DNA of 64,000 bases from a virus (IMGVR_UViG_3300033073_001027:1-64000); one strand, 5' to 3'; positions 33,540-49,459 are shown, numbered from the stretch's first letter. Translations and numbers: made by a program. Notes: generated by a model not told the origin, from the letters alone.

Positions 33540-33567
33540 AAAAAAGGCGACGCAAATAGCGTCGCCT
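33540..33567 (-). terminator. Rho-independent terminator
   Basis: AGGCGACGC-tattt-GCGTCGCCT followed by a T tract on the minus strand, downstream of the DenV-like gene. Confidence 0.75.
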
Positions 33568-33599
33568 CGAAATTATCCGTTTTTCACGGAATTGAAAAA

Positions 33600-34169
33600 T
33601 CAGGAAGTGGAATCTTGTTCGTTCTCATGTAAGTATTTATTACTCCACCACTCTGGAACTGGTCGATTTTTCCACTTTGCAAAACTTTTTTTCGCACCGA
33701 TATAATAGTTACGATACGACTGAATCGAATCAGAAACCTTGTATTCGTCAGGCATAGCAGGAGTAGGTTGCGTCAGATAACCGACTGGAATATTCTTCGG
33801 TGGTTTACGCAACCAATAGACAAGACGATCGGTAGCATGAATCTTGCCATATCGATGTGTATATTCCTGCAATAATTCTGTAAACAAGCAGAACAACCAA
33901 GTATAATTGTTGTTGGACTGGCGAACCCAGAGAGCACTGGGGTGATTGATATGAGATGCCTTGTATAGATTCTGTTCCATCGCCTGATCGTCAAGCCGCC
34001 AACGCTTGATGCGTCGACCAGAGGATGCATCGATGTATTCCTCGCCATCTAGAATACGATGCGCAGTGGATAGGAGTTGCGCATACTCGATGATCATCTT
34101 GACGACATGCTTGTCAACATGCATCTCTGCGCATACGCGAGGTTCGGGATGTAGATAAAAAATGTTCAT
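33600..34169 (-). CDS. Pyrimidine-dimer DNA glycosylase/endonuclease V-like protein
   Basis: MNIFYL...CAEMHVDKHVVKMIIEYAQLLSTAH...HINHPS..W...EYTHRYGKIH...PAMPDEYK motifs. Confidence 0.75.
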   Translation of the reverse strand: MNIFYLHPEPRVCAEMHVDKHVVKMIIEYAQLLSTAHRILDGEEYIDASSGRRIKRWRLDDQAMEQNLYKASHINHPSALWVRQSNNNYTWLFCLFTELLQEYTHRYGKIHATDRLVYWLRKPPKNIPVGYLTQPTPAMPDEYKVSDSIQSYRNYYIGAKKSFAKWKNRPVPEWWSNKYLHENEQDSTS

Positions 34170-34175: not shown

Positions 34176-34457
34176 TTACTCGTCAAAAGGTAACTCTTGT
34201 ATATTGTCTAGGATTGCGTGCAGATGTTTTTTTGCACCATCACTAATTATACTCGATGTAGTAGCGAAGTCAATGCATTTCTTGACAAAAATCGGATCCA
34301 ATCCAACAAGATCCTCGGCAAAATACTTTTTTTCTGTATCTGGATATGTGTTCAATGCAACCAATACCAATTCCACTTCATAGTCCGTATATAATGTTAT
34401 ACGGTATCTGCGTGGAAAAGGCAATAGTTTATCAGGAAATTTTAATATCTCTGCCAT
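34176..34457 (-). CDS. Hypothetical protein
   Basis: ORF track; start reassigned to MAEILKFP, preceded by an AATAAATA late-promoter variant. Confidence 0.6.
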   Translation of the reverse strand: MAEILKFPDKLLPFPRRYRITLYTDYEVELVLVALNTYPDTEKKYFAEDLVGLDPIFVKKCIDFATTSSIISDGAKKHLHAILDNIQELPFDE

Positions 34458-35565
34458 CAATATATTTATTAGTTTGAAGAGTTTTGATGATAGTTTCCAA
34501 ACCATCCGACTCTTTTATTGCGTTGGAATATTCTAACCCAATAGAATAATCATAAAAGTCGCGATCTAGTGTATCGAGCAATTTAGTGGAGGTAAACTCT
34601 TCTGGTTGAATCACTGCACAGAAATGAGAGAAGTACTCAGAATTTTCAGAATTCTCTTGCATCTGCGGGACAATTATCTGCGGCGTATTTGATTCCAAAC
34701 ATTTTGCAATTGTTCCTATTCCACCATGATTTACTACTGCTCTTGATTGCGGGAACAGTAAATGATGTGCTAGTGTTTCGTTACAAACAAAAACATTTTC
34801 ATGTTCAACTTTGACATCTCCGAGTACGATCGAACGAATACCAGAAGATGCAACTTCTATAATATAATCTAAAAAGTTTTTTGGTTTTGTTTCGCCGCCA
34901 ATACCATAACCAAGAGTGTATACTACTGGAGGGGTTCCTGCGTCGATAAAATTTTGCATATCAATCGGCAATCCAGATTGATCATAATGTTGCATAAAAT
35001 TACCATAAACCAAATTTTCATGATCACCAGAATCATAAATCTTTTTTGGAAATAATGTAATCTTCAAATTATCATTCCGAAGAGGAGATAAACTTGTATA
35101 TGAATCTTTCGGCAATCCGAGCGCATACCTTCTCTCATTGAGACATTCCAACCAATATGAATTTAAGAATGCATCGCTGCTAGGATTATTTTTGATATAT
35201 TTTGGAGAAATTAGTAAGTCTACTTTTGGGATACAATAATAATCAGAAATTATTTTTGCCATTGGACATAGAGGGTGAGAAATAATCAAATCAATCCCAC
35301 TACAAATTTCTATCATCTTTGGAAGAAAAGACATAGAATGATTCATCAACAAATCTAATATCGGAAAAATAAAATCTTCATTTTTGCTGAAATCAACATC
35401 CATAACATTAACATATGGAATAGCATGAAAGTCAGCAACATCTTTTAAGTTATTTTCTGGGAGAACAAATATTACCTCATGACCAAGATCTTGTAATTTT
35501 TTACCAAGAGGAATAAATGGACTAATATCTCCATAGGAACCACCTGTATGTAGTAAAATCTTCAT
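34432..35565 (-). CDS. GT-B glycosyltransferase (GT1/GT28-like, NDP-sugar dependent)
   Basis: GSYGDISPFIPLGKKLQDLGHEV N-terminal motif; HHLLFP...VNHGGIGT...PQIIVP sugar-nucleotide-binding motif. Confidence 0.88.
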   Translation of the reverse strand: MKILLHTGGSYGDISPFIPLGKKLQDLGHEVIFVLPENNLKDVADFHAIPYVNVMDVDFSKNEDFIFPILDLLMNHSMSFLPKMIEICSGIDLIISHPLCPMAKIISDYYCIPKVDLLISPKYIKNNPSSDAFLNSYWLECLNERRYALGLPKDSYTSLSPLRNDNLKITLFPKKIYDSGDHENLVYGNFMQHYDQSGLPIDMQNFIDAGTPPVVYTLGYGIGGETKPKNFLDYIIEVASSGIRSIVLGDVKVEHENVFVCNETLAHHLLFPQSRAVVNHGGIGTIAKCLESNTPQIIVPQMQENSENSEYFSHFCAVIQPEEFTSTKLLDTLDRDFYDYSIGLEYSNAIKESDGLETIIKTLQTNKYIDGRDIKIS

Positions 35566-36992
35566 GAAAATACTCTAACACCATATGTCTGTTCGAACTC
35601 TCTGGCATCCTTTGAATTATTTACCATTGGTTTACCCTTTACGTTCAAACTTGTATTAAGTAGTATCGGGCACCCTGTTTCTTGGTACCATTGTCTGAGT
35701 AAAGTATAGAGACCAGGATGTTGCTCAAATGTCACAGTCTGGACACGACTTGTCCCATCAGCATGAACAATAGCAGGAAACTCATCAGGATATTTACATC
35801 TTGAAGTATACTGCATATACGGGGAGTCTTCCCATGACATTTCAAAGTAGTCTCTTGCATGTTCTGCCAGAATGACTGGAGCGAACGGACGAAATTTTTG
35901 TCGTTGTTTGATCTCATTAACTCTATCCTTGATGTCATGACCACGAGGATCGGCAAGTAAACTACGATTACCCAATGCTCTAGGTCCGAACTCTGCGCGA
36001 CCATTAGCAACCCCAACTATACCTGTTTTGTGTAGTTCTGTCAATAGTTTTTTGATTGGATATTCGTCGCCCATATCTGCACCAAGATATGGACCCTTCC
36101 AATTCAACTTTTGTCGATTATTAGCAGCGATAGCGCCAAGCGAACTTCCCGCATCACCAGGATTTGGCATAATCCAAACGTTCTTAAAATACTTTTTTGT
36201 GATATGATTGGCACTACAGTTTAGCGCACAACCACCCATCAGAACAAGATTGTTGCTATTTGTTAATTCAGTAGCAAGAATTACAAGTTTCTCAAACTCT
36301 TCCTCGTAAACTTTTTGAGTTGCTGATGCGACGCTATATACGTCCAAGACGTCATCAGTATGGCGCCACGCACGGCATCCGCGATGGAGGTTCTCGTGTT
36401 CCCAAAGACCTCGGACATCCGTGTAATATTTTTCTGAATCTCCGTATGCTGCCATTCCCATTAGAATGTATTCGTCTTCATTGGGTTTTAGTCCAATTCT
36501 ATCTGTCATAGCAGAATAGAACAGTCCCAGTGACTGCGGATACTTCATACTCCACAACTTCTTCATCTTCGACCCTCGGCACGACCAAATAGAAGCAGTA
36601 TCTAATTCGCCTATGGCATCAATAACCAGAACAGTTGCCTCTACAAATCGAGAAGTGTAAAATCCTGCAGCAGCGTGAGATTCGTGATGGTTGGCATATT
36701 CAAATACAGCATCTATACCGAAGTTCTTCTTCATATATCGAGAAGGGAAGAAATGTTGAAATCCTTGCCCTGCATAAAGTCTGCGGATTGTTCTCAGATA
36801 CGGTTTCTCGTACCAATGTATTTTTGTCGGAACACCATATTTCATTGCTTCGGTGATAATCTGATTGTTCAACCAAGGATCGTTCTTGATACCACTAAAA
36901 CGCTCTGCGTGACTTGCAAATAGAATTTCACTTCCATCAACTACAGCAATAGATGCATCATGTGCGCCAGCTGAAATACCCCATTCAATCAT
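35562..36992 (-). CDS. Carbamoyltransferase, NodU/CmcH family
   Basis: HDASIA...ERFS..KND, HHESHAA, DAIGE, EYILMGMAAYG, GGCALNC, EFGPRALGNRSLLADP, RPFAP, DGTSRVQTV and LLNTSLN motifs. Confidence 0.95.
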   Translation of the reverse strand: MIEWGISAGAHDASIAVVDGSEILFASHAERFSGIKNDPWLNNQIITEAMKYGVPTKIHWYEKPYLRTIRRLYAGQGFQHFFPSRYMKKNFGIDAVFEYANHHESHAAAGFYTSRFVEATVLVIDAIGELDTASIWSCRGSKMKKLWSMKYPQSLGLFYSAMTDRIGLKPNEDEYILMGMAAYGDSEKYYTDVRGLWEHENLHRGCRAWRHTDDVLDVYSVASATQKVYEEEFEKLVILATELTNSNNLVLMGGCALNCSANHITKKYFKNVWIMPNPGDAGSSLGAIAANNRQKLNWKGPYLGADMGDEYPIKKLLTELHKTGIVGVANGRAEFGPRALGNRSLLADPRGHDIKDRVNEIKQRQKFRPFAPVILAEHARDYFEMSWEDSPYMQYTSRCKYPDEFPAIVHADGTSRVQTVTFEQHPGLYTLLRQWYQETGCPILLNTSLNVKGKPMVNNSKDAREFEQTYGVRVFS

Positions 36993-37089
36993 AAATGAAA
37001 GGATCCATTTTTCTAATTGCCTTTAACCTCTGTTTAAGTTTCTTCTTATTTTGAAAATACTTAATAATCTTGAAAAATATTTTGATCAT
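36985..37089 (-). CDS. 34-aa peptide with C-terminal DPFIYD motif
   Basis: Read manually: MIKIFFKIIKYFQNKKKLKQRLKAIRKMDPFIYD*. It has a GGAG RBS, an ATGA overlap with the upstream rSAM stop, and overlaps the carbamoyltransferase start. Confidence 0.75.
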   Translation of the reverse strand: MIKIFFKIIKYFQNKKKLKQRLKAIRKMDPFIYD

Positions 37090-38195
37090 GTATATTCTCC
37101 GTATACTCTTAGAAGTTCTGGCCACAAGTCATATGATCTTGTTGATTTATTTAACATTTTATACTCAACTCCAGCAGTCCAAGAGTTAAAATTAACAAAA
37201 CTAGATTCTTTATCAATATTCAATAAATTTTTCCTAAATGACTGCAACGATTCAACGTTCGGGTTTCCAGAATATTTTTCCAAACATTCGTCAAGTTGCT
37301 GCAGTGCAATTGTTTTTATTTCTGGATGTTGATCGAATATGCTGAGAGAAGCAGGAGTAGTTAAACATTGCCAATATACATTAGCAAAATATTCAGAATT
37401 TAACACATAATCGCAATAGTCAATCAGACGCAAAGAAGAAAACAAAAAATATACTGGGTGCGCATTTAATTTTTTGCCAGTTTGTTCATATATTATTCTG
37501 AGATTTTCCTCGAATACTTTCCATGATGCGCCATGTCGAACATACTCGAATCTATCGCCTATTGTTTCAAAACTAACACCCCAGGTAACATTTGGATTTG
37601 AGATCATTTTTTGCGCAAGTAAATTTGTTTTGACATCATTTGTCAAATTAGTAAGAACATAATACTGTTTATCGGGCAGTAAATCCAACAATTTCAAATT
37701 TTGTTTTTGAAGTAGAGGTTCACCGCCCAATAAATTGATATTCTCTATAGTAGATAGATTAGTCGTAATAAAATCAAAAACATTAATTTCTGCAGCATCT
37801 TTGTTCGGAGTAGATTGTTCTTCTTTACTCAATGATGCCCATTTCGAACTAAACTGCGAGTTACAATAAACGCATGAAAGATTACATGTATTAGTCCATC
37901 GAACATCAAAATTAGTCAGCGTAAATTCTTCGGGTGTGTTTACCTTAATCACTGGAGGTTTTCGTTGAGAATTTCCGCCAACTGCTTCTATCTTTTTACA
38001 ATACGAACAATTTTTTTCATGCCATTCACCCTTAAACATCGCTGCTCGAATATCATTGGATTTTTCATTGTTTAATATTTGTTCTAGCGGTTCTTCGTTT
38101 ATGTTACCAAGAGTTACATCTGATGCACAGCAAAATTTCACTTCTCCATTTGTATTAAGAAAAAAAGAATCAAATGGATAAGAACACAAAGGCAT
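37086..38195 (-). CDS. Radical SAM protein with N-terminal twitch/SPASM-like domain (copy 8)
   Basis: CNLSCVYC, GGEPLL; N-terminal CSYPF...FCC...CSYC. Confidence 0.92.
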   Translation of the reverse strand: MPLCSYPFDSFFLNTNGEVKFCCASDVTLGNINEEPLEQILNNEKSNDIRAAMFKGEWHEKNCSYCKKIEAVGGNSQRKPPVIKVNTPEEFTLTNFDVRWTNTCNLSCVYCNSQFSSKWASLSKEEQSTPNKDAAEINVFDFITTNLSTIENINLLGGEPLLQKQNLKLLDLLPDKQYYVLTNLTNDVKTNLLAQKMISNPNVTWGVSFETIGDRFEYVRHGASWKVFEENLRIIYEQTGKKLNAHPVYFLFSSLRLIDYCDYVLNSEYFANVYWQCLTTPASLSIFDQHPEIKTIALQQLDECLEKYSGNPNVESLQSFRKNLLNIDKESSFVNFNSWTAGVEYKMLNKSTRSYDLWPELLRVYGEYT

Positions 38196-39049
38196 TAAAA
38201 TCTCTCCAACAATTCACCATAAATTGTTTCGGATAATTCTACGTGCTTATCATATTTCGCATGCCCAAATCCGCAAACTGGATAACTCTCGGTGGTAAAA
38301 TATTGTGCATTTTTCAAACGTGATTGAAAATTCTCTGCTGTATTAATCATAGTTTCAGAAATATGTCCATCTATTTGCCCCTGCCCATACCAAGGAATCA
38401 ACGCATCCCAAGAAGTGGAAATTGTAAACCACACAATTCTGTTATTGTGCCGCGAGGATAATAGGTCCAAATATTTTAATTCTTGATAATACTTACATAA
38501 CATATTCTTAGGATTCGCATATTGTAAAACATATTCCTCGTAAGATTTCTTATTCGGCCAGTTCCACCATTGAGCATTAAAATGACCATAGATTATATTG
38601 TGTTCTTCGCCAGAATCATCAATCCAAAATTGTCTATTGGGAGCAGGCGCTCCAATTACAACAAGAGATTTATCTGTAATATTACCTGACAGCAAATCTT
38701 CTTCTAATTTGTGTATCGAATATGCCAAACTAGATCCACCAAGACCACGATTAACCCAAGGAACATTAAATTTATCAGACAACCAGCGAGGCCATGCAAA
38801 TTGTTCTTGGTATTCTCGAACTTTCTGTGCCACATGTTTTGGATCAGGGTTGATAAACCAAGCAGGATTACTACAATATTCTGGGGTAAAATATTTTGCA
38901 TAAAAATCACCAGTTCTGTGATTTGTATATTCTCGTTTAATTCTATCTACTTCTTGCTCTGACAACTTGTCTATAACAACATGATCCATCAGTTCCTCAC
39001 CAGAAGTAAAACTGCAACCATATGCAAAAATCTTATCAATTTGTATCAT
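38195..39049 (-). CDS. SGNH/GDSL-fold hydrolase- or acyltransferase-like protein
   Basis: Block I-like FAYGCSFTSG, block II-like NRGLGGSS, C-terminal GHA...H. Confidence 0.6.
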   Translation of the reverse strand: MIQIDKIFAYGCSFTSGEELMDHVVIDKLSEQEVDRIKREYTNHRTGDFYAKYFTPEYCSNPAWFINPDPKHVAQKVREYQEQFAWPRWLSDKFNVPWVNRGLGGSSLAYSIHKLEEDLLSGNITDKSLVVIGAPAPNRQFWIDDSGEEHNIIYGHFNAQWWNWPNKKSYEEYVLQYANPKNMLCKYYQELKYLDLLSSRHNNRIVWFTISTSWDALIPWYGQGQIDGHISETMINTAENFQSRLKNAQYFTTESYPVCGFGHAKYDKHVELSETIYGELLERF

Positions 39050-39058
39050 TAATTCCTC

Positions 39059-40246
39059 TTAAATTAAATTTGCTTCTCGATATGACAGTAGAATATTACC
39101 AAATTCAGGAAAAATATCGAAATAATTCTCGTTTCGATATTGATCGTGCAGTTTTATCTTTCGCATCATACTAAGATAATCTGACGGATTATCAATTTTC
39201 AAAAATTCCACCAACGAAGGAAGTTGTTCGTGTAGAGATTGATTTTTCTGTAATTTTTTTATAACATGTTCTTTTATTTCCATGGGCAAATTTTTCGCCG
39301 ACAATACGTCAGGAACATGCACTAAATTCAAATAGACTCCTATTCCCAAAGAGTTAAATACCTCCAAATACTCTGGGACGTAATATATATTAAGAGAACT
39401 GATAGTCAGGCAAATTTGAACATCATTCGGTCCATATCTTTCAAGGAACCTTTGTAAATTTTCAGACACCTTGCCCCAAGAAGCAGGATGTCGCATATAT
39501 TCAAATTGTTTACCTACTCCATCTATGCTAAACATAAAATCAACACGCATAAATTCGTTCCAGATTTCGTTCATTGCGAATTCAGGAAAAACAGTTCCAT
39601 TGGTATTATAATGGATTCTTTGTTTTTTACTATAACCAGCAGAAATACTTTTTCGTAATAGACTATAATGTTGCTCGTTAATTAGCGGTTCTCCGCCATA
39701 TATTTCAAATAATTCAATTTGCGGAAGAAGCGTCTCGAGATCATTCCAAAACTCAGAATTATATAATGGCCACTGTAATACTTTTCTGTAGTTTCCATCA
39801 GAGGAAAGGTTTGAATAATTTTGTAAAAACCCACCAAGACCAAGATCAATTGTTTCTCGAATCCATTTACTAGAACTTGTTGCCGTACAAGTCCTGCATT
39901 TTAAATTACAAGTATTACCTAACTTGACATCTAAAAATTTCAACTCAGGAGTAGTATGAACGCCCCATCTTTTATTTTCTCTCTGCCTCTTACTTTCTTT
40001 ACCGCATAACTCTTCTTCCCAACAAACACGACAACCACTTGGTTTCTCTCCATTTACCATGGATTCGCGCAACTCTTTAATTGAGTTTGAATTCCAAACT
40101 TCACTTAGAGTGTCAGAAGAAAGAGTAAATAATGAGTTATCGTCTCGCGTATAGAATTGTTGATTCAGACAACAGGGACTAACTAAACCATCTGCTCGAC
40201 TTTCTAAATGTATGAATGGTAGAACACAATAAGAATCACTGGTCAT
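39059..40246 (-). CDS. Radical SAM protein with N-terminal twitch domain (copy 7)
   Basis: CNLKCRTC, GGEPLI, YNTNGT, SIDG; N-terminal CVLPF...PCC...CRVC. Confidence 0.92.
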   Translation of the reverse strand: MTSDSYCVLPFIHLESRADGLVSPCCLNQQFYTRDDNSLFTLSSDTLSEVWNSNSIKELRESMVNGEKPSGCRVCWEEELCGKESKRQRENKRWGVHTTPELKFLDVKLGNTCNLKCRTCTATSSSKWIRETIDLGLGGFLQNYSNLSSDGNYRKVLQWPLYNSEFWNDLETLLPQIELFEIYGGEPLINEQHYSLLRKSISAGYSKKQRIHYNTNGTVFPEFAMNEIWNEFMRVDFMFSIDGVGKQFEYMRHPASWGKVSENLQRFLERYGPNDVQICLTISSLNIYYVPEYLEVFNSLGIGVYLNLVHVPDVLSAKNLPMEIKEHVIKKLQKNQSLHEQLPSLVEFLKIDNPSDYLSMMRKIKLHDQYRNENYFDIFPEFGNILLSYREANLI

Positions 40247-41447
40247 TAAATAAATCCTGGTATTCTGGAAACACTGAAAAGAAATCTTCGTTTCTAATTC
40301 TGTCGATAATTTGAATTTCTTCCAGCAATTCTGGTAATTGATGTGATCTATCTTCTGCCATCATATAATCTTTTAAATGATTAATTTGAGCAATACTGTT
40401 AGTTCTATCTGTCATACTTACATTACCGACCAAATAAGTTTCTTCAATAAATGAATTGAATCTAACCAGAAGTTCTTCTTTGTATTTTGCGGGCAATACC
40501 TGAATACGCATAAACTCTGGAGTTTGTATTGGATTTACCATCCATCCATTATCATCAATAAATCCAGAATTTATACAGTGTCGAATAAAATCTGTTAAAT
40601 CATATGCATTAAAAACGCCAACAGTCGCGCTGATTTTCAACGAAATGTGAGGACATTCTCGTTTGATTGCTCGAATATTATCTTCAATCTCAGACCAGAC
40701 AGTCCCCTTTCGCAAATACTCTCCTCGTTCTAGATAAGAATCTAGACTAGCCCAAACCTCAACAGTATCAAAATGATTCCAATATTCTAATACATTAATA
40801 TTTTTGTAATTCAATTTACTAAGATTAGTATTATATCTAAGGAGAACATTAGTTTTTTTGCGATCGATCAACTCTTGCAATATCATGTAATGTTGTTCCA
40901 TGATAAGAGGTTCTCCTCCTGCAAAATATATTTCTTCAACATAATCAAAATGTGGATATATTTGTTCCCAAAGATCAATCTTTTGCGGAGAAGAAAACCA
41001 ATCTTCACCCACCTTACCGAATCTTATTTTTGAATCAGAATGCCAACCTGAACTTAATTGCGGACCACAAGATCTACACTTAAAGTTACAAATATTACTG
41101 AAACGAAAATCCCAATAATACATTTTAAATTGATCTAACGACCCATCTTCATTTGTCATATTGAACAAATACTGTTTGTCTTTATTATATTCGTTCAATC
41201 TTGTTCGATTGCTGTTGCCCGAATGCTTTTCTTGTAAATAACAACGAGAACAGATCTCAGATTTTTCTCCGTTTAACATTTTTTTACGAAGAGTTTTCAT
41301 TTGGTCATTATTCCATATCTCTTCTAATGTGGAATCTGCGAGATTCCCAACATCAAGATGATGTGATGTCATACAACAAGGTAAAACCTTATTGTTTGGC
41401 AACGTATGTAAATGAATCCAAGGAGAAATACAAAGAGTATCAGACAT
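40236..41447 (-). CDS. Radical SAM protein with N-terminal twitch domain (copy 6)
   Basis: CNFKCRSC, AGGEPLI, YNTNL; start reassigned to MSDTLCISPW. Confidence 0.92.
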   Translation of the reverse strand: MSDTLCISPWIHLHTLPNNKVLPCCMTSHHLDVGNLADSTLEEIWNNDQMKTLRKKMLNGEKSEICSRCYLQEKHSGNSNRTRLNEYNKDKQYLFNMTNEDGSLDQFKMYYWDFRFSNICNFKCRSCGPQLSSGWHSDSKIRFGKVGEDWFSSPQKIDLWEQIYPHFDYVEEIYFAGGEPLIMEQHYMILQELIDRKKTNVLLRYNTNLSKLNYKNINVLEYWNHFDTVEVWASLDSYLERGEYLRKGTVWSEIEDNIRAIKRECPHISLKISATVGVFNAYDLTDFIRHCINSGFIDDNGWMVNPIQTPEFMRIQVLPAKYKEELLVRFNSFIEETYLVGNVSMTDRTNSIAQINHLKDYMMAEDRSHQLPELLEEIQIIDRIRNEDFFSVFPEYQDLFNDQ

Positions 41448-42642
41448 AGCGGGATAGTTCCTCGAACCACTCAGGAAATGTTTGTTGGAAATCTTCATTG
41501 CGCAAATTGTCAAGTTTTTTTGTAATATCACTAAATTCAGAAAGTAAATTCTGATCTTTATTCATTGTCAAAAAATTAGTTACTGTTTGCTCTACTCGTT
41601 TGCCTTGAACTCGGGAGATAATTATATCCTTCAATGTTCTTGGTAAAATTCTGGGATCATAATATGCAGGATCGGTGACAAAATTTATAGAAATATTATT
41701 TGTATACTTGCTGAAATAGTCTTCAAACTCAGATAGGTAAAAAATATTAAAAATAGAAACTGTTTGTAGGACACTATAACTCAAGTTGCTATGCGTTTCA
41801 CACAAATTACGAATCCAGTCAAACGTTTCCATTACTGTATTCCATTTAGAAGGCCAACGGATATACTTATTTCGATCATACAAGTCATCAATAGAGAGCA
41901 TAAATTGCACTCTTTTAAATTTTTTCCAAACATCATTATATTCTGTATTGATAATAGTAGTATTGGTAGAATAAATTATTTCGATGTGTTCAGAATCACC
42001 AGATTGAACTAACGACTCTAGAAAATGTTTATGTTTGTCTATCAACAAAGGTTCACCACCATTGATATACAGTAACCTTAATGATTTTCTATGCACAAAC
42101 AATTTATCCCAAAACTCAGAATCCAAACACCAATTAAACTTGTTTTTATCTATGTTGGTAGGAGAGAATCCATGAATTGCTTCAAATGCGGGAAACCATC
42201 TACTGCTAGAATAAATGTTACAAGATCTACAAGCAAGATTGCAATGATTGCCCAATCTTAATTCCACCATCTCATAATTTACATCGACGCTTCCGTCCGC
42301 AGAGGTATCTTTTATTGCGTCATCATAAGAGTATTCGAGTCTTTCCAATTCAAATTGCCGTTTACTTGTAATTCCAACACGTTCTTTATCGAAACACCGA
42401 CTGCACTGCACAGGTTCCTGCCCCGCCAACATTTCCAAGCGGACTTTTTTAAAAGATTCGCTATTCTGAATTGGTTTAAAATCGTATTGCGTATTGTTTA
42501 ACGTTCTATATTCAGGTTTCTCGAATTTATCAAATGCTTCTGACATTCTAGAATCGTGTCTTGCCTCACAACACAATGTAACTGAACCATGTGGATGCGT
42601 TGCAAGATGATTCCAGGGTAATGGACAAAATGTTTTACTCAT
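41440..42642 (-). CDS. Radical SAM protein with N-terminal twitch domain (copy 5)
   Basis: CNLACRSC, NGGEPLL; N-terminal CPLPW...LCC...CSRC. Confidence 0.92.
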   Translation of the reverse strand: MSKTFCPLPWNHLATHPHGSVTLCCEARHDSRMSEAFDKFEKPEYRTLNNTQYDFKPIQNSESFKKVRLEMLAGQEPVQCSRCFDKERVGITSKRQFELERLEYSYDDAIKDTSADGSVDVNYEMVELRLGNHCNLACRSCNIYSSSRWFPAFEAIHGFSPTNIDKNKFNWCLDSEFWDKLFVHRKSLRLLYINGGEPLLIDKHKHFLESLVQSGDSEHIEIIYSTNTTIINTEYNDVWKKFKRVQFMLSIDDLYDRNKYIRWPSKWNTVMETFDWIRNLCETHSNLSYSVLQTVSIFNIFYLSEFEDYFSKYTNNISINFVTDPAYYDPRILPRTLKDIIISRVQGKRVEQTVTNFLTMNKDQNLLSEFSDITKKLDNLRNEDFQQTFPEWFEELSRYV

Positions 42643-42648
42643 AAGTTT

Positions 42649-43965
42649 TTACTCATTAATAGAATCCCACCATACCTTAGCGTTGTCGGTCAAGCACTCT
42701 CGGAATGTTATATCCTGAGTTCGCAATCTCTCTGTTGTTAATATGTTTTTTTTACCCTTTGATGCTGCTTGCCAATATTGTTCAGTCCATTCTTCCTGGA
42801 AAGTTTTTCTATTTAACAATTCTAACAACGTATGTTTATATATCATTGTTTTGTGCGTTAACTTCGGTTCAATGTATTGCAGAATATCGTGAATAATTTC
42901 TTCCAATATTTGTCGAGGTAGACACATTGGAGACATAAGAACAGAAGGGTCGAAGGCAAAGGTTACTTTTAAGTAAGTTTTAACGTCCAACTCGGTAACA
43001 ACATCAAACAACTCTTTTAGATGAATCAATCCAGGAGTTGTTAACGTGACATCGAATACTATAGCATCGTCATTGTATAGATCAAGAAGAAACATTCCTT
43101 CTTTAAAATTATGCAACCACTTATCCCAGTCTAATCCTGTTCTGATATACTCTCCGACAGTTCCAACGCCATCTATGCTCGCACAGATATTTACATTCTT
43201 AAAATGCGGCAAGTATTCATATAGATTATGTTCTTTGTAGGATATTCTACTTAGATTGGTATTATATCGAACAACCACATCCTTACTTTTACCAGTATCA
43301 ACCAGTTGTTTCATTATCGACCAATGTCGTTCCCACATCAAGGGTTCACCGCCAACCCAATAGATTTCTTCGATGATTCCAGAATCAACTGCAGATTGTA
43401 ATTCTGTTTCTAGGACTTCCTTTTGGAAATTTCTAATTTTTTCTCTGTTTGCAGGTTGCAACCAAGGATTGCCAGCGTAATCCACTAGATCGTTCTTTAC
43501 TTTCTCAGTTTCCCAAGAAGAACTTAATTGCTCACCGCACATTCGACATTTAAAATTGCAAAGATTAGATATTCTATAGTCATAGGAAACAGGAGATAAG
43601 GTCGTATATCCTGTTTCGTCTGTAGATTCTAAAATCTCATCTATCTTGTGCGGAAATAAAGTTTCTGTAAAGTATTTTTTATATGTGTGCAGATTTAATA
43701 TTTGATTATTACAAACATCGCATTGTGAAATTTTCTCACCAGAAAGAATTCGCTTTCGAATATCTTTCATATACTCGCTGTTCCAGTGTTCTTCCAGACT
43801 CTTCGGCGAAAACTCTTGCACTTGTTCTCCCCCAGGAGCATCAATATACTGCCTCTGGAATTCAGGAGTCTCTCTGCTTGCACAGCAAAGTCTGCGCTCC
43901 CCCTGCGGACTGACGAATGTGTGAGTCCAAGGGGCAACGCAGAAGTATTCTGAAACTTTAGTCAT
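42649..43965 (-). CDS. Radical SAM protein with N-terminal twitch domain (copy 4)
   Basis: CNFKCRMC, VGGEPLM; N-terminal CVAPW...LCC...CDVC. Confidence 0.92.
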   Translation of the reverse strand: MTKVSEYFCVAPWTHTFVSPQGERRLCCASRETPEFQRQYIDAPGGEQVQEFSPKSLEEHWNSEYMKDIRKRILSGEKISQCDVCNNQILNLHTYKKYFTETLFPHKIDEILESTDETGYTTLSPVSYDYRISNLCNFKCRMCGEQLSSSWETEKVKNDLVDYAGNPWLQPANREKIRNFQKEVLETELQSAVDSGIIEEIYWVGGEPLMWERHWSIMKQLVDTGKSKDVVVRYNTNLSRISYKEHNLYEYLPHFKNVNICASIDGVGTVGEYIRTGLDWDKWLHNFKEGMFLLDLYNDDAIVFDVTLTTPGLIHLKELFDVVTELDVKTYLKVTFAFDPSVLMSPMCLPRQILEEIIHDILQYIEPKLTHKTMIYKHTLLELLNRKTFQEEWTEQYWQAASKGKKNILTTERLRTQDITFRECLTDNAKVWWDSINE

Positions 43966-45475
43966 ACTTTGCTAAAGGTTCGTCGATATTTTTACTATCT
44001 GGATTCAGAATCCAACCTTCTTCTTTAGCGATACGAAGCAAGTCTTCATCGTCTAGATACTGAACAGTGCTATCACCATTGATCAGTTCTGTTCTCTTAT
44101 TCAAACGTGTATCAGGAATTGTCTCATACCACTCTCGCAAAATATTTGGGAATGTATCAAGCAAGTTTTTTTCTCTGCGCTGATCATATTGACTGTAGAA
44201 AGTTTTAAAGTCTCTCCACAGAGTCATCTTGTTACTCGTTCTACGATGTGGCGCATCAACAATTTCAAGATAATCAATCAGACGTTCAATACTGGCACGT
44301 TCAAATGAATGCCACAATGGTCTATCCTTCGCGATGTTCCACCAGTCCTGTAGTTTCTCTCTACAATAATTCTTCAAGTGATCTGGTAGGGCGAGAGGAC
44401 TCTGGAAACTCGGAAACCGCAGGATGTTCAGACTCAACGAAGGGTCTTTACATTGACTTATTTCCTTGATGTTATACATATCCTCCATAAACTCAGTTAT
44501 GTTAAACAAACATAGACTGTTAATAGTCATCATGATGTGGACCTGTTTTACATCAGGAGAAAACACCAGACGCTCGATATTCTTGCGCCAAGTCTTCCAC
44601 TCAAACCCGTCGCGAATGTATTCTGCATGCGCATGAGTCGTTTCGCAACTTGTATAGACATGAAATTCCTTGATAGACTTCGCCTTCTCAAGAAGTTTAT
44701 CGATGATGGCATCTTTAGCAATAAGGTTGCTATTGACAGCAAAACGCATATTGTTATCTGGGTTTTCTTCGAACCAGTCAAAGAGTTTCCAAGTTTCAGG
44801 ACTCATTAGCGGTTCGCCGCCTGTAATTCTAAGTTCTTCTAGACTGCCAGACAGTCCACTGTTCCACCACTTCCAAAAAGCAGTGATGTATGGATTTTCC
44901 TCATCTCTGGAAAATGGTTCAGTCCAAGATCCATCTTGTTCGAAGGCACCTGCGCCATCAGAAACTAGATTCTGATACGGTCCATTGTTTTTAATGTCTC
45001 GTGCCCAAGAAGTGGAGAAACTTGCATTACAATATGAGCATGCTAAATTGCAAGTTCGATCGAATGCAATCTCAAATGTTTTCAGATTAACGTCATCTTT
45101 CCAATTCATTTCTTGAATGACTTTGAGTTCTTCATCGGTATAGATCACTGACTTGAATACTCTATCGCTAACAGCATCAACACCCATATCTTCTATACGC
45201 CAGCAGTATTCACACTCACGAGGTCTGTCACCCTCTTGCATCATTTTACGCATTGCCTTTTTGTGCATGGTATTATGAATCGCTGTAGGATTATTTTCGA
45301 TTTCCTCGAGAGGAATTTTATGTGCTGGCGGGTGATGACAACTGGCAGTAGTTCCACTACCTAACCAAGTAGTCGCATTAAACCACTTCGCGCCACAGAA
45401 ACTCTTAGACTTAGTATCAAGAACTCTTTTTCGATAATCAATTAGAGTTTCATCACCTTGCGGACCTTTGCTCAT
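43958..45475 (-). CDS. Radical SAM protein with N-terminal twitch domain, CHH subtype (copy 3)
   Basis: CNLACSYC, TGGEPLM; N-terminal CGAKW...SCHHP...CEYCW. Start at the ATGA overlap. Confidence 0.92.
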   Translation of the reverse strand: MSKGPQGDETLIDYRKRVLDTKSKSFCGAKWFNATTWLGSGTTASCHHPPAHKIPLEEIENNPTAIHNTMHKKAMRKMMQEGDRPRECEYCWRIEDMGVDAVSDRVFKSVIYTDEELKVIQEMNWKDDVNLKTFEIAFDRTCNLACSYCNASFSTSWARDIKNNGPYQNLVSDGAGAFEQDGSWTEPFSRDEENPYITAFWKWWNSGLSGSLEELRITGGEPLMSPETWKLFDWFEENPDNNMRFAVNSNLIAKDAIIDKLLEKAKSIKEFHVYTSCETTHAHAEYIRDGFEWKTWRKNIERLVFSPDVKQVHIMMTINSLCLFNITEFMEDMYNIKEISQCKDPSLSLNILRFPSFQSPLALPDHLKNYCREKLQDWWNIAKDRPLWHSFERASIERLIDYLEIVDAPHRRTSNKMTLWRDFKTFYSQYDQRREKNLLDTFPNILREWYETIPDTRLNKRTELINGDSTVQYLDDEDLLRIAKEEGWILNPDSKNIDEPLAKYD

Positions 45476-46857
45476 TTCCACTCCTCAATTAAATGTGTAT
45501 ATTCGGGGAAAGTTTCTGCGAAGTTCTTTCCTCTGCGCTTATCGTATTCATTGACAAACTTAACGAAATCTGCTCTATACTTGTCTTGTGTTGGTTCAGT
45601 TCGCAGATAATCACAGAACCTTTGTATTTGATCGAACTCTTCCAGATATAATCTGGCATGGTGAGAAGGAGAATGATATTTTAACCATCCTCTGCAATAT
45701 TCTTCAATTTGATCGGCGTACATATCTCGTGTTGCTTTATCGAGCATAGTTGCCTGAAGGTGAACAGGATATCGCAAGTAATTAACACTAAGAGGAATCA
45801 TATTCTCTTCAGTAAACTTGTTGAAGAATACTCTGAGTTCCATCAATTCTTCAATAAACTTAGTAAATGTTGGAAGACTGAGAATATTGATTGTTGTCAT
45901 AATAGTCACTCTGGACTTGGTCATGTTCAGAATTTTTTGAACATTATTATGCCAATCTCTATAATTTAAACCATCTCTAGCATATTCTGCCTGTTTACCA
46001 TAACTTTCTATACTGGTATAGATGTCGATCTGCTTCACACTATATTCGAGATCATTAATATCTGCAATCAATCTGTCAATCAATTCAGGAGAAGAACCCA
46101 AGTTAGTATTAACTGCCAGTTCTAAGTTTGGTTGTGGATTCTTCTTGATCATCTCCATAGTCTGCCAGAAATCCTTACTCATGGTCGGTTCTCCGCCAGT
46201 CATGCGGAACACCCTAAGATACTTCAATGCTTCTGGAAACCAAATTTTAAATGCTTCGGAGTAAGGATTGTGTTCACTGTTTTTATATGGAAACCGTCCT
46301 GCTTCCTTCAACCAATCAAGATGATGTGCACTAAACGTCGTTGGATATGGACCATTCTGCTTAATATCTTCCATCCATTTGCTAGAAATTTCAGGAGAAC
46401 AATACGCACAAGCAAAATTGCAAGCATTAGAAAATGAAACTTCTAGATATGTAGGATACACGTTTTGATCCCACGGATGAGAAGATAATTCTTCTACCTT
46501 ATCAAACGACCAATGTTCTGCTGTTTTGTAATGTCGATCCGAAAAATAGTCTTTACCGAGATCTTCAATTTTCCAACAGTATTCACACTCGCGAGGTCTT
46601 TGCCCCTCTAACATAAGTTGACGTTGTTTTTTCTTGTGTTCGCTGTTGTGCAGAGACGAAACATCATTTTCAATCTCTGACAGGGGAATTTTATGCGGCG
46701 ATGGATGGTGGCAAGAATGATTGAATCCATTTTGCAAATACAATGTAGTTTGTAACCATTTTGCGGCGCAAAATGTAGGGCTGATTGTATTCATCACATC
46801 GCGTTTGCGCTTCAGTTCTTCAATTCTTGCTTCATTTGTTCCAGTATTAACGTTCAT
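45472..46857 (-). CDS. Radical SAM protein with N-terminal twitch domain, CHH subtype (copy 2)
   Basis: CNFACAYC, TGGEPTM; N-terminal CAAKW...SCHHP...CEYCW. Confidence 0.92.
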   Translation of the reverse strand: MNVNTGTNEARIEELKRKRDVMNTISPTFCAAKWLQTTLYLQNGFNHSCHHPSPHKIPLSEIENDVSSLHNSEHKKKQRQLMLEGQRPRECEYCWKIEDLGKDYFSDRHYKTAEHWSFDKVEELSSHPWDQNVYPTYLEVSFSNACNFACAYCSPEISSKWMEDIKQNGPYPTTFSAHHLDWLKEAGRFPYKNSEHNPYSEAFKIWFPEALKYLRVFRMTGGEPTMSKDFWQTMEMIKKNPQPNLELAVNTNLGSSPELIDRLIADINDLEYSVKQIDIYTSIESYGKQAEYARDGLNYRDWHNNVQKILNMTKSRVTIMTTINILSLPTFTKFIEELMELRVFFNKFTEENMIPLSVNYLRYPVHLQATMLDKATRDMYADQIEEYCRGWLKYHSPSHHARLYLEEFDQIQRFCDYLRTEPTQDKYRADFVKFVNEYDKRRGKNFAETFPEYTHLIEEWK

Positions 46858-48170
46858 AATGTTTTACACCACTCTAAAAATTCTTTAAATTCAGGAAATG
46901 TCTCTATCAAATTAGTTCCACTGCGAAGATCGTACTCGGGAAAGAACTTGGCAAATTCTTTACGAGCACGCAGACGGTATTCTTCTGTGACTGCATGTGA
47001 GTCTTGATAAAAATATTCACGAACTCGTTCCATTTTACCGATTTCTATTTTACTGAATCCATTATGATTCATAAACTCAACATCTCGATCTATATATACT
47101 CCGAACTCTCTCGGTAGAATATTCATTGTCCAGTGTGGAGGTTCTTTAAGATGTGGGATGTCAATCAGAATACGTTCACCCCATTTTGCTCTAAGTTCTA
47201 CAATCAACTGTAGGAAGTCTTTAAAGTATGGAACAGTCAGAACATTATACGTTGTCATAAAACTCAGATACGCTGTTGGCACCGTTTCTAGAACAGTATT
47301 TACGTTCTCGAGAAACAGTTCGTAGTTTAGACCACGACGAATATACTCTGCTTGCTTACCTGTGCATTCGAGACTCGTAAACAATCGCAAATTCTTGATG
47401 TGCTTTGCTTCAATCAAACCCTGCACACGTTCGCAAAAATCTTTAACTTTACGAGTTGTAACACCAAGGTTGGTATTGATCTGTAAAAATAATTCTGGGT
47501 TACCATCTTCCTTTAACATATCCAGCAACTTAAATGTGTTTGTTGTCATCAGAGGTTCGCCACCAGTGATGCGGAAGATCTTCAAATCGTTCTTCAGATC
47601 AGGCCACCATTTCCAAAATGCTTCGACGTATGGATTGTATTCTTTTTCAGAATAAATTTTGCCATGCACACCATATGGACTATTTGAAATATCATAATCC
47701 CCAAATTGAGATATTTCCTCCTGCCACATCGAAGAAAACGTAGAACAACAATATCCGCACTTGAAGTTACAAGCATTGCTGAAACTAATTTCCATGTTAT
47801 AAGGATTTACGTCTTGATCCCATGGAGTATTGCGAAGTAGTTCCGTCTCTTCGTCTAACACAAATAGATTATTAATGCTGTCCGTATTTTTATATACTCG
47901 GTCGCTAGTTTTATCTAAATCTTCTATGCTCCAGCAATATGAACATTCACTAGGTCTGCCACCTTCAAGCATATTTTTACGCTGTTGTTTTTCATGAGAT
48001 GTATTGTGGAGGGCAGAAGGATTACTTTTAATTTCCTCCTGTGGGATATATAGAGGAGGTGGATGATGACAACTGTGTTTCTCCCCAGAGTGAAGATAAA
48101 GCGCAAGCCATCTCCACTTCTGGGGGCAAAACCCAGCACCAACAGAATCCAGTTTTTCTTTTACATTCAA
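46854..48170 (-). CDS. Radical SAM protein with N-terminal twitch domain, CHH subtype (copy 1)
   Basis: CNFKCGYC, TGGEPLM; N-terminal CPQKW...SCHHP...CSYCW. Confidence 0.92.
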   Translation of the reverse strand: MNVKEKLDSVGAGFCPQKWRWLALYLHSGEKHSCHHPPPLYIPQEEIKSNPSALHNTSHEKQQRKNMLEGGRPSECSYCWSIEDLDKTSDRVYKNTDSINNLFVLDEETELLRNTPWDQDVNPYNMEISFSNACNFKCGYCCSTFSSMWQEEISQFGDYDISNSPYGVHGKIYSEKEYNPYVEAFWKWWPDLKNDLKIFRITGGEPLMTTNTFKLLDMLKEDGNPELFLQINTNLGVTTRKVKDFCERVQGLIEAKHIKNLRLFTSLECTGKQAEYIRRGLNYELFLENVNTVLETVPTAYLSFMTTYNVLTVPYFKDFLQLIVELRAKWGERILIDIPHLKEPPHWTMNILPREFGVYIDRDVEFMNHNGFSKIEIGKMERVREYFYQDSHAVTEEYRLRARKEFAKFFPEYDLRSGTNLIETFPEFKEFLEWCKTL

Positions 48171-48562
48171 CCTCTGCGCATCCTTGCTACCTCATGTGCC
48201 TGTTCTTCGCTGATAATAGGAACAGCATTGCTCTTGTGCATTGTGGCGATACCCTTGATAAGAGTGCCAGTGTATGTGTTCTCTTTGCGAGCAAAGGTGA
48301 CACCAACACCTTCCTCTGATTTATAACGTTCGCGATGGTCGGACTTGTATGGTTCAGGTGCCTTGGTACCACGAAGTTTCGGATTATATTTACCCTGACG
48401 ATATGCGACATACTCGTCGAATGTCTTGGTCTTGCAACCGAGACGCTTCATTTGCTTGTTGTGATCTGCCCAGTCTTGAGCATACTTCGCAGTCGGAACT
48501 TTCGACTTACGATGCTTAGTATTCGTAGTGGTATACGCATGAGACATAAGGTGCATAGTCAT
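48167..48562 (-). CDS. Conserved hypothetical phage protein (basic)
   Basis: C-terminal YTGTLIKGIATMHKSNAVPI motif seen in T4-like phages; AGGAG RBS. Confidence 0.75.
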   Translation of the reverse strand: MTMHLMSHAYTTTNTKHRKSKVPTAKYAQDWADHNKQMKRLGCKTKTFDEYVAYRQGKYNPKLRGTKAPEPYKSDHRERYKSEEGVGVTFARKENTYTGTLIKGIATMHKSNAVPIISEEQAHEVARMRRG

Positions 48563-48593
48563 AACAAACTCCTATTTCAAAGTCAACATACTT

Positions 48594-48622
48594 GTTATAC
48601 CCTAACTGCGCAATATTGTCAA
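48594..48622 (-). promoter_or_regulatory. sigma70-like promoter TTGACA-17-TATAAC heading the radical SAM operon
   Basis: Elements at 48622-48617 and 48599-48594. Confidence 0.75.
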
Positions 48623-48666: not shown

Positions 48667-48692
48667 GGTGGTTTGTTTGAGGAGAAGAAACG

Positions 48693-48965
48693 ATGAATAT
48701 TTTTTATGAAACTGGTAATGCGAAAAATAGCGACTTTGATCCGTTTGTAATCCGTAAAATGAACCCGAATAGTGCTTGGGCGAATCATTCCTATAATCAT
48801 TTTGTTCTGACCCATATTTTTCGGAATTCGCCTGATCCTCGGGAAAAAATCCAAGCCGGAAAGGAAATTGAAATCGCTGAACGTAAGATGAAGTTTTGGG
48901 AACGTCATCCAGATTTTGAACTCGATCATGCAGAATTCTATCGGAAAAAATATTACCGAATGTGA
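48693..48965 (+). CDS. Hypothetical early protein
   Basis: ORF track; has a promoter and RBS. Confidence 0.75.
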   Translation: MNIFYETGNAKNSDFDPFVIRKMNPNSAWANHSYNHFVLTHIFRNSPDPREKIQAGKEIEIAERKMKFWERHPDFELDHAEFYRKKYYRM

Positions 48966-48975
48966 TTTTTAGGGA

Positions 48976-49004
48976 TTGACTTTTCTGTAATTTTAGCGTA
49001 TAGT
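48976..49004 (+). promoter_or_regulatory. sigma70-like promoter TTGACT-17-TATAGT
   Basis: Elements at 48976-48981 and 48999-49004. Confidence 0.7.
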
Positions 49005-49016
49005 GATAATATTGAA

Positions 49017-49244
49017 ATGGAGATTGTTATGTTTGATATTTCTAAAGAAGCAGAAAATCTGATGATCGCTCTCGGATATGATGAGCAAGGGTTTGGTTAC
49101 GTCGCAAGCGATTACCTTGAGGTGAATTTTGAACTGGAAGCAAATGGAATTCAGTTCGGTTCCTTTGAAGATTTCCTTCGTCGTAAGTTGGAATGGAAGA
49201 ACTCTTTGAAAAGCGATGTAGTTGTTGAAAGGATTGCAGCATAA
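49017..49244 (+). CDS. Hypothetical early protein (true start possibly 49029)
   Basis: ORF track; GGAG precedes the second ATG. Confidence 0.7.
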   Translation: MEIVMFDISKEAENLMIALGYDEQGFGYVASDYLEVNFELEANGIQFGSFEDFLRRKLEWKNSLKSDVVVERIAA

Positions 49245-49459
49245 TGGTTAGTATCTATACTGAAGTCGAAGTCTATATGGAAGATTTCGATGACGCAGAT
49301 TTGATTGACGAACTTGAAGGTCGAGGTTACTATGTAGTTAAGAACCCAGCACAAGTTCCAAGTGTCAATTCACTTTATGATGCATGGATTCTAGATAAGA
49401 ATAAGTTTGAAGATTTGTTTCGCGATTTTTGCCGCGAGAATATTGGGAGGAGTTTTTAA
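49244..49459 (+). CDS. Hypothetical acidic protein
   Basis: ORF track; TAATG coupling to the upstream gene. Confidence 0.7.
   Translation: MVSIYTEVEVYMEDFDDADLIDELEGRGYYVVKNPAQVPSVNSLYDAWILDKNKFEDLFRDFCRENIGRSF

Follow-up and report, generated by a model that had tools for sequence, protein, structure and literature searches.

A 64-kb stretch of viral DNA (IMGVR_UViG_3300033073_001027, positions 1 to 64000; here called the window), part of a 102-kb IMG/VR virus record that is ~59% complete, carries on its minus strand an operon centered on eight radical S-adenosylmethionine (SAM) enzymes. The unit runs from 48562 to ~33550 and comprises 15 genes, all abutting or overlapping, with junctions that are either overlaps of 1 to 26 nt or gaps of 6 to 9 nt. 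In the order of transcription, these are a 131-amino-acid (aa) gene, the radical SAM genes rs1 to rs7, a 284-aa gene, rs8, a 34-aa open reading frame (ORF), a carbamoyltransferase gene, a glycosyltransferase (GT) gene, a ~93-aa gene, and a denV-like gene, followed by a terminator. An earlier interpretation made from the DNA alone (the sequence-only reading) had described an operon of eight N-terminal-twitch radical SAM genes with a carbamoyltransferase, an SGNH protein, and a GT, and all of these are present on the minus strand. Its limits, 34432 to 48622, take in the genes it named, but the unit also holds the 131-aa, 34-aa, ~93-aa, and denV-like genes and ends at 33568 to 33544. Missing from that earlier inventory was the 34-aa gene, which is conserved, ends in a DPFIY motif, and is tied to the carbamoyltransferase.

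All eight radical SAM proteins exceeded the curated cutoff of the NCBIfam model NF033640 along the whole model (207 to 397 bits versus a cutoff of 170), and none of 14 control genomes yielded a match above that cutoff. rs1 (46854 to 48170; 438 aa, TTG start; 304 bits) keeps all Cys motifs and forms its own orthogroup. rs2 (45472 to 46857; 461 aa; 323 bits) has its closest copy in the Ralstonia phage RsoM2USA (E value, 2e-122), a copy that the family tree places in the rs2 clade. rs3 (43958 to 45481; 507 aa, GTG start; 307 bits) carries a C-terminal extension, and its closest copy, also in RsoM2USA (E value, 3e-175), lies beside the carbamoyltransferase of that phage. These are followed by rs4 (42649 to 43965; 438 aa; 319 bits; SPASM domain at residues 9 to 86), rs5 (41440 to 42642; 400 aa; 342 bits; SPASM domain at residues 6 to 83), and rs6 (40236 to 41447; 403 aa; 397 bits), whose true start, the ATG at 41447, gives an 8-nt overlap with the rs5 stop and whose type is, in the family tree, the widespread bacterial single-copy form. 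rs7 (39059 to 40246; 395 aa; 345 bits) groups with a copy from a true Bacteriovoracaceae chromosome, and rs8 (37086 to 38195; 369 aa; 207 bits; SPASM domain at residues 4 to 66) is the most divergent copy.

In the alignment of the eight proteins, four N-terminal Cys residues are invariant, as are the CxxxCxxC motif (C119, C123, and C126) and the GGEP motif (G176-G177-E178-P179). The retention of both motifs in eight divergent paralogues, as claimed earlier, thus holds throughout. The radical SAM domain PF04055 was matched in all eight proteins (above its cutoff in six), and cleavage of SAM at a [4Fe-4S] cluster is predicted from the motifs. The Pfam SPASM domain was found at the N terminus in five of the eight, so that a Cys-rich auxiliary domain does lie where the sequence-only reading had put it, and the domain order is N-terminal twitch, radical SAM core, and helical C-terminal region. 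Canonical SPASM/twitch enzymes have the auxiliary domain C-terminal to the core; because it is N-terminal in 8/8 here, the rs proteins are permuted relatives and not canonical members. Residues 5 to 80 of the rs6-type profile aligned weakly with the twitch domain of BtrN (E value, 0.004).

A structural model of rs6, with a predicted local distance difference test (pLDDT) score of 87.5, matched radical SAM cores in general. By Foldseek and VIA-align, BlsE, SkfB, anSME, CteB, and MoaA tied, with Z scores of ~10 to 11. Since enzymes acting on sugars, nucleotides, and peptides tie in this comparison, the rs6 fold does not reveal the substrate.

Pairwise identity among the eight paralogues is 18 to 40% (mean, 24%). 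A tree of 155 family members gave every window paralogue a separate, supported clade shared with orthologues of other viral loci, and the orthogroups were also populated by RsoM2USA and by bacterial arrays. That each paralogue has its own conserved orthogroup across distant phages and bacterial arrays indicates that the copies are ancient, non-redundant, and individually maintained, which fits distinct steps or substrates, as the sequence-only reading had supposed of eight intact enzymes. Recent tandem duplication was rejected as their origin, given the 18 to 40% identity and the grouping of the copies with orthologues elsewhere and not with their neighbors. A profile search of 1.84 billion representatives returned at least 7,190 family clusters (50% identity) at E values of ≤1e-30. 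Among the best matches were polypeptides of 790 to 1,200 aa with two or three complete family modules; if these are real fusions, they would suggest that the paralogues act jointly, with merged gene calls as another possible source.

The carbamoyltransferase (35562 to 36992; 476 aa; phrog_1601) is of the TobZ/NodU/CmcH type. Both of its domains scored above the Pfam cutoffs (Carbam_trans_N, 125 bits and 1e-36; Carbam_trans_C, 184 bits and 1e-54), and its PDB relatives TobZ, GdmN, and NovN were matched at 1e-37 to 1e-51, with the window HHESH aligned to HHRAH of the best-matching solved chain. All of the solved relatives are named O-carbamoyltransferases of secondary-metabolite pathways. The NodU equivalog model NF041651 gave 139.8 bits against a cutoff of 1000, which makes the window enzyme a family relative and not NodU itself. 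The cyanophage S-CAM3 has a carbamoyltransferase beside ADP-heptose genes. The GT (34432 to 35565; 377 aa) is a GT1-family enzyme of the GT-B type that passed both Glyco_transf_28 cutoffs (PF03033, 28.9 versus 26.2; PF04101, 23.3 versus 22). Its nearest relatives are the GT1 enzyme GtfA (E value, 3e-12, over residues 3 to 304), GtfB, and sterol glucosyltransferases. The NodU/CmcH and GT1 assignments of the sequence-only reading are borne out by these results. The GT is an optional member of the module, with homologues in only 2 of ~79 related viral loci; one also lies beside the radical SAM family in a Polyangiaceae metagenome-assembled genome.

The 284-aa protein (38195 to 39049) had no Pfam, NCBIfam, or PHROG match. 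Its 13 homologues share an invariant GCS.T.G (GCS replacing GDS), VN.A.PG.S, and a C-terminal H.P...H, corresponding to blocks I, II, and V of the SGNH/GDSL fold. The model (pLDDT, 81) had GDSL, CE2, or PatB structures as all of its top 17 Foldseek matches, acetyl-xylan esterases included (probability, 1.00; E values of 5e-4 and weaker). The earlier SGNH call therefore holds at the level of the fold, the model matching only SGNH/GDSL-type structures, and the protein is an esterase or acyltransferase candidate. Neither the block III Asn nor the Asp of the DxxH triad is invariant in the alignment; a Ser-His pair without Asp, reportedly found in CE2 esterases, would be possible for this protein. 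No significant match emerged when the SGNH family was compared by profile with a 320-aa protein of a bacterial array or with two recurrent phage families, although one of these phage families shows, by eye, the same GGCS and HP..EAH motifs.

The 34-aa micropeptide gene (36985 to 37089) sits between rs8 and the carbamoyltransferase gene, sharing 4 nt with the end of the former and 8 nt with the beginning of the latter. The peptide has a net charge of +9, a strongly amphipathic first 14 residues (top 1.2% of shuffles), and the C-terminal end RKMDPFIYD. Homologues ending in KKRLxELRKxDPFIY[D/K] were found in 49 of 79 viral loci fetched with the carbamoyltransferase, including some in which the carbamoyltransferase is only ~53% identical and no radical SAM gene occurs within 10 kb. 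In a second, independent sample of 80 viral loci, picked only by a match of the rs6 type, the micropeptide was present in 49 of the 50 loci having a carbamoyltransferase. Among the loci listed, the micropeptide gene mostly overlaps or adjoins the carbamoyltransferase start or is no more than ~150 nt from it; in the others, the distance reaches 1.4 kb.

Across 83 distinct DNA versions, synonymous variation was seen at the Asp, Pro, Phe, Ile, and Tyr codons of the motif, with four Pro, three Ile, and six Leu codons in use. Because synonymous codons vary freely, the constraint acts on the peptide. A nucleotide-level artifact of the overlapping carbamoyltransferase start was rejected, since all Pro, Ile, and Leu codons are used and the peptide is conserved at distances of up to 1.4 kb. 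In a database search, 5,978 proteins of 18 to 83 aa matched the micropeptide at E values of ≤10 (best, 1e-15 to 1e-11), and all of the matches listed are unnamed or "hypothetical protein." A tblastn search against cultured phages returned nothing, though a motif scan finds the copy in RsoM2USA; short length or the low-complexity filter therefore hides matches. That copy (MG752970.1, locus coordinates 5038 to 5148) is a 36-aa ORF ending in RKQDPFIYK, situated between annotated genes 201 and 200, on the upstream side of gene 199, which encodes the carbamoyltransferase; the deposited annotation does not include this ORF.

The DPFIY motif is not confined to micropeptides. GatZ/KbaZ-like proteins of the aldolase type carry it at their extreme C terminus (dozens match the motif, and it was the tail in 3/3 retrieved), and it also ends UDP-glucose-dehydrogenase-like proteins and one radical SAM family member. 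In the three contexts looked up, the tail-bearing gene lay directly upstream of the carbamoyltransferase gene and overlapped it. The linkage marks the motif as a portable element at a free C terminus that accompanies the carbamoyltransferase irrespective of the protein bearing it. The tailed GatZ/KbaZ-like proteins, of the class II aldolase type, are 345 to 365 aa long. One of them (locus coordinates 10001 to 11038) is encoded next to a carbamoyltransferase in a locus of phage-like make-up, along with genes resembling those for SnoaL, cupin, shikimate dehydrogenase, and nitroreductase, which hints at a richer version of the pathway.

Related contigs of the pelagimyophage type share a common framework of the operon-head protein, a variable array, the SGNH protein, the peptide, the carbamoyltransferase, a 90-aa protein, a denV-like protein, and PhoH. 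From 0 to 8 radical SAM genes were detected per related locus fragment, the zero-copy fragments holding little upstream sequence, and the copy number differs even between close relatives of the window phage. Other related phage loci contain UDPG/GDP-mannose dehydrogenase-like genes, a cytidylyltransferase, or an SGNH-carbamoyltransferase pair. The comparison of copy number and neighborhood in related phages that the sequence-only reading had proposed was made on the 80 independent viral loci, which have 2 to 8 copies per locus (mode, 5) and neighbors that favor a sugar-type substrate. Among these loci, a carbamoyltransferase occurs in 50, an SGNH-like family in 62, a DegT aminotransferase in 10, and a glycogenin-like family in 63, the only coherent PDB matches of the last being to glycogenin (GT8; E value, ~0.01). 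Seven of the 10 recurrent phage neighbor families had no Pfam match, and an eighth had a sub-threshold GT2-like match; PDB profile searches of two recurrent neighbor families found nothing.

For bacterial genomes, a scan with a single protein returned nothing, and an alignment of the eight paralogues was too divergent to serve as a locus-search seed. The seed used was a 30-sequence alignment of rs6-type homologues, which biases the bacterial sample toward that type. The 78 bacterial loci recovered contain 153 family members in arrays of up to 12, and their recurrent neighbors are UbiA-type transferases (13 loci), Wzt ABC exporters (11), PhyH dioxygenases (10, with 43 copies), GT2 enzymes (10), and B12-radical SAM proteins (4). 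A Bacteriovoracaceae contig has an eight-gene array with rs2, rs4, rs5, rs6, and rs7 types; since genes for a ribosomal protein, Obg, and Lgt lie alongside, it represents a true chromosome. One query type matched more than 567 IMG/VR contigs. The family occurs chiefly in large aquatic phages and in bacteria that are predatory or belong to the Bacteroidota. Its cultured carriers are RsoM2USA, a soil jumbo phage with two family members, and the Vibrio phages K566/K567, QD01, VS1, and VS2. K566/K567 gave tblastn matches at four places. In K566 (OZ196521.1; 255 kb), three annotated radical SAM genes of the family are clustered (locus coordinates 7464 to 14460), and 4.5 kb from the cluster (18984 to 19176) is a gene whose annotation names the lipid A acylation protein PagP.

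The remaining genes of the unit are small. At its head is the gene for a basic 131-aa protein (48167 to 48562; phrog_27048, function unknown), whose homologues stand first in the operon in 17 related loci and for which Pfam and Atlas searches found nothing. The conserved ~93-aa protein (34176 to 34457) has homologues 3' of the carbamoyltransferase in 52 related loci; the ORF start at 34505 given for it earlier is probably too long, and 34457 was taken instead. The denV-like protein (33600 to 34169; phrog_624, 1e-56) is encoded by the last gene before the terminator, and its Pyr_excise match was weak and below the cutoff. A denV-like gene also lies ~0.7 kb downstream of the carbamoyltransferase in the unrelated RsoM2USA (locus coordinates 8309 to 8896). 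This linkage could be functional or mere shared synteny.

The sequence-only reading had placed ~14 kb of stop/start-overlapping genes behind a sigma70-like promoter. The overlaps and short gaps are as described, but the promoter itself is weakly indicated. The candidate, TTGACA-17-TATAAC at 48594 to 48622, lacks the −7 T, for which reason a consensus scan missed it; a ribosome-binding site and the ATG at 48562 follow it. Promoter-like sites in the operon region numbered 59, against 61.8 expected from shuffles, so there is no enrichment. The unit is closed by a strong intrinsic terminator (33544 to 33568) with a 10-bp stem, 7 GC pairs, and a T run. No T4-type late promoter (TATAAATA) occurs between 31.7 and 57.4 kb of the window; elsewhere in the window there are nine, and most of those mapped lie just upstream of structural or replication genes. 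The operon promoter is thus probably of the early or middle class.

The virus is identified as a T4-like myovirus by baseplate, tail, gp32, gp59, and PhoH genes. Its nearest cultured relatives are Pelagibacter phage HTVC008M and Methylophilales phage Melnitz, to which the gp6-like wedge protein and a CHASE2-cyclase are 37 to 40% identical; no match among cultured phages was obtained when the 15-kb region was searched by megablast. Upstream of the operon, short plus-strand ORFs seem to be present at 48690 to 49530 (one starts near 48693), between the operon and the cyclase gene, and would be transcribed away from the operon. The CHASE2-adenylate/guanylate cyclase (687 aa; phrog_35576) is encoded in a minus-strand unit at 49586 to 57411 and is ~40% identical, over nearly the full length, to the Melnitz and HTVC008M homologues; this unit sits behind a TATAAATA late promoter at 57404 to 57411. 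Beyond it lies a group of minus-strand genes (57418 to 61885) for a TET/JBP dioxygenase (458 aa), a TET-associated glycosyltransferase (TAGT; PF20691), a DruA-domain protein, and a 365-aa protein.

We favor, with a probability of about one-half, the interpretation that the operon is one instance of a modular pathway, found widely, that tailors a substrate of the carbohydrate type (glycan, glycolipid, or glycoside). A sugar-type substrate is favored because the enzymes found beside the family elsewhere include UDP-sugar dehydrogenase, cytidylyltransferase, DegT, GT2, probably GT8, and Wzt. The early or middle class of the unit was counted on the same side, since there is no late promoter within it and the terminator follows the denV-like gene. 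The sequence-only reading had proposed an uncharacterized tailoring assembly line that decorates a virion protein, the host surface, or a sugar on DNA; the tailoring cluster stands and a sugar-type substrate is favored, but these targets are indistinguishable by sequence.

In such a pathway, each of the eight rs enzymes would cleave SAM at its CxxxCxxC cluster and abstract hydrogen from a different position or intermediate, and the auxiliary cluster, held by the four conserved Cys residues, would probably serve as an electron conduit. The auxiliary cluster of BtrN is said to be such a conduit and to be fully Cys ligated, and the BtrN substrate reportedly is a carbohydrate-like cyclitol. Given the four conserved Cys residues and the BtrN-like twitch, the likeliest reactions at sugar carbons would be oxidation to a ketone, epimerization, or dehydration. 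Addition or removal of an O-acyl group would fall to the SGNH-fold protein, and O-carbamoylation of a hydroxyl, by way of carbamoyl-AMP, to the TobZ/NodU-type enzyme; in this phage, the GT1 enzyme would add a sugar. The DPFIY peptide would partner the carbamoyltransferase and not the rs enzymes, its free C-terminal tail most likely docking there and its amphipathic basic N terminus providing a second contact, possibly with membrane. With an early or middle promoter probably driving transcription as far as the 33.55-kb terminator, synthesis of the product would precede virion assembly, and the most plausible target would be a host envelope glycan or a soluble glycoside.

Several observations weigh against a carbohydrate-type substrate. 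No family member has a known substrate, the family being catalogued only as a sequence model, and the fold neighbors of rs6 include as many peptide-modifying as sugar-modifying enzymes. Glycan-type neighbors occur in only 10 to 13 of the 78 bacterial loci, no sugar gene adjoins the eight-member Bacteriovoracaceae array, and the single-copy genes of Reichenbachiella and Agaribacillus lie in unrelated, untelling contexts. Most of the recurrent phage neighbors belong to no recognizable family. No NDP-sugar (nucleoside diphosphate-sugar) synthesis gene was found in the window: searches for GT8 and for short-chain dehydrogenase/reductase-type epimerases were empty in the phage's own 102-kb record, itself ~59% complete. 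Docking of the peptide on the carbamoyltransferase is most likely, as judged from linkage alone, and the candidate promoter at 48594 to 48622 is weak evidence for the start of the unit.

The array could instead modify proteins or peptides, with the rs enzymes installing cross-links, epimerizations, or oxidations on a phage or host protein and the DPFIY tail possibly carbamoylated on its tyrosine; we regard this as unlikely. Most characterized SPASM/twitch enzymes act on peptides, and SkfB, CteB, anSME, SuiB, and PqqE are among the nearest structures. The nearest solved GT relatives, GtfA and GtfB, reportedly act on a vancomycin-class peptide aglycone, and an invariant free C-terminal DPFIY that is always encoded beside the carbamoyltransferase would be expected of an acceptor tail. 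Yet the peptide motif is constant against an rs set of anywhere from 0 to 8 members, and some loci have the peptide-carbamoyltransferase pair but no nearby radical SAM genes; the peptide is therefore not the precursor of the arrays, and on the same grounds the micropeptide was rejected as a radical SAM substrate. In a pathway for peptides made on the ribosome and then modified post-translationally (RiPPs), the precursor travels and varies with the radical SAM enzymes; here, the sole conserved small peptide follows the carbamoyltransferase, and no other conserved small gene of the Cys-, Gly-, or aromatic-rich, precursor-like kind accompanies the arrays. Pfam scans of the window found no RiPP recognition domain, protease, or exporter. 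By these comparisons, the micropeptide is not the basis of a RiPP system in this array.

A second alternative is that the operon makes a free small molecule, of the aminocyclitol, nucleoside, or glycoside type, that acts as an inhibitor, signal, or cofactor during infection and is not a polymer decoration. The nearest characterized relatives of several parts point in this direction, namely BtrN (butirosin), BlsE (blasticidin S), TobZ/NovN/GdmN, GtfA/GtfB, and the macrolide GT1s, and some related loci include DegT, SnoaL-like, cupin, shikimate-dehydrogenase-like, and nitroreductase-like genes. The saxitoxin cluster, with its carbamoyltransferase, short adjacent ORFs, and GDSL enzyme (PMC2885083), was counted here as well, as an analogy of gene content only. 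Against these stand the Pfam scans of the window, which found no scaffold synthase (polyketide synthase, nonribosomal peptide synthetase, cyclase, or inositol-type synthase), and the recurrent bacterial neighbors, which are polymer-export and glycosyltransfer genes. We consider a free small molecule quite unlikely.

The remaining alternative, that the array tailors hypermodified DNA by editing a sugar or side chain on phage DNA bases after replication, draws on the TET/JBP dioxygenase and TAGT encoded in the same genome 11 kb away, which share the C-terminal heptapeptide SSLEDLF. No PF00145 C5-methyltransferase was found in the 102-kb record, so that the TET substrate could be 5-methylcytosine or thymine. 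The unit lacks a late promoter, as expected of T4-type DNA modification genes, and the denV-like gene both closes the operon and stands near the carbamoyltransferase of RsoM2USA. A radical SAM enzyme takes part in thymidine hypermodification in phage M6 (PMC8989533), but M6 gp53 resembles spore photoproduct lyase, a different family. TET was found in only 1/5 other array-bearing viral records (71 to 86% complete, so that absence is not strict) and is absent from the complete RsoM2USA genome; dependence of the array on the phage TET system was rejected on these counts, and the DNA-sugar target of the sequence-only reading finds no support in co-occurrence. Two publications on TET-linked phage DNA modification mention neither radical SAM enzymes nor carbamoyl groups, the freshwater pelagimyophages described in PMC7029224 carry a 2OGFeDO gene but no radical SAM genes, and arrays on bacterial chromosomes sit beside housekeeping or polysaccharide-export genes. 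On balance, a DNA target is improbable.

Returning to the favored carbohydrate-type pathway, a more far-reaching version of it can be put forward only tentatively. The DPFIY tail would be a portable tag that recruits pathway enzymes to the carbamoyltransferase or carries carbamoyl on its tyrosine, and the five to eight rs orthogroups would form a physically coupled multistep machine that edits one sugar structure by radicals, a chemistry that would be new to phages and bacteria. If each enzyme is assumed to hold two [4Fe-4S] clusters, the eight enzymes would contain 64 iron atoms, a real cost for a marine phage, and the product must therefore matter to infection. Solving the rs reactions would add new radical chemistry to a very large family without an assigned reaction and could shed light on glycan or glycoside remodeling by large phages, which would bear on host range and superinfection. 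The carbamoyltransferase-linked micropeptide and C-terminal tag offer a testable functional microprotein of a kind often missed by annotation pipelines, and the existence of cultured carriers makes direct testing possible.

The array as such is not without precedent, since the family exists as a curated NCBIfam model and pelagimyophage radical SAM cassettes are in print (PMC7029224). New here are the orthogroup analysis for the phage, the possible module fusions, the SGNH fold test, the codon test of the micropeptide, the C-terminal tag on unrelated enzymes, and the list of cultured carriers. NF033640 (N_Twi_rSAM) describes the same domain order, and all eight genes exceed its cutoff; it is a sequence model of a single gene, whereas in the window eight orthogroups stand in a set order and are tied to a carbamoyltransferase module. 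Full-text searches for an N-terminal twitch/SPASM domain or for NF033640 by its NCBIfam name found no paper. BtrN shares the radical SAM core and one auxiliary cluster, and its twitch is the domain aligned, if weakly, to residues 5 to 80 of the rs6 type; in BtrN, the twitch is C-terminal and the enzyme is one, whereas here the twitch is N-terminal and there are eight paralogues. Closest in lineage are the pelagimyophage "radical SAM cassettes" of a hypervariable host recognition cluster (Zaragoza-Solas et al. 2020, PMC7029224), which belong to the same phage lineage and are the same kind of variable cassette. That paper only mentions the cassettes, with no family assignment, orthogroups, carbamoyltransferase-micropeptide link, or function. 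The saxitoxin genes for SxtI (carbamoyltransferase), SxtJ and SxtK (short ORFs), and SxtL (GDSL) resemble the operon in gene content only (PMC2885083), and the saxitoxin set includes scaffold genes, of which the window has none.

TobZ, NodU, CmcH, NovN, and GdmN share with the window carbamoyltransferase the two-domain architecture and a strongly conserved Carbam_trans_C domain, its HHESH being aligned to HHRAH of a solved chain; the window enzyme falls short of TobZ by ~100 residues and has a conserved micropeptide coupled to it. To our knowledge, such a partner has been described for no characterized TobZ/NodU-type carbamoyltransferase. HypF, a YrdC/Kae1-type carbamoyl-AMP enzyme, is said to carbamoylate the C-terminal cysteine of HypE at its flexible extreme C terminus, and the invariant free C-terminal tail encoded beside the window-type carbamoyltransferase may be analogous. 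The HypE tail ends in Cys, whereas the DPFIY tail ends in Tyr-Asp, Tyr-Lys, or Tyr-Arg, and a docking role and a HypE-like acceptor role for the tail would account for the linkage data equally well.

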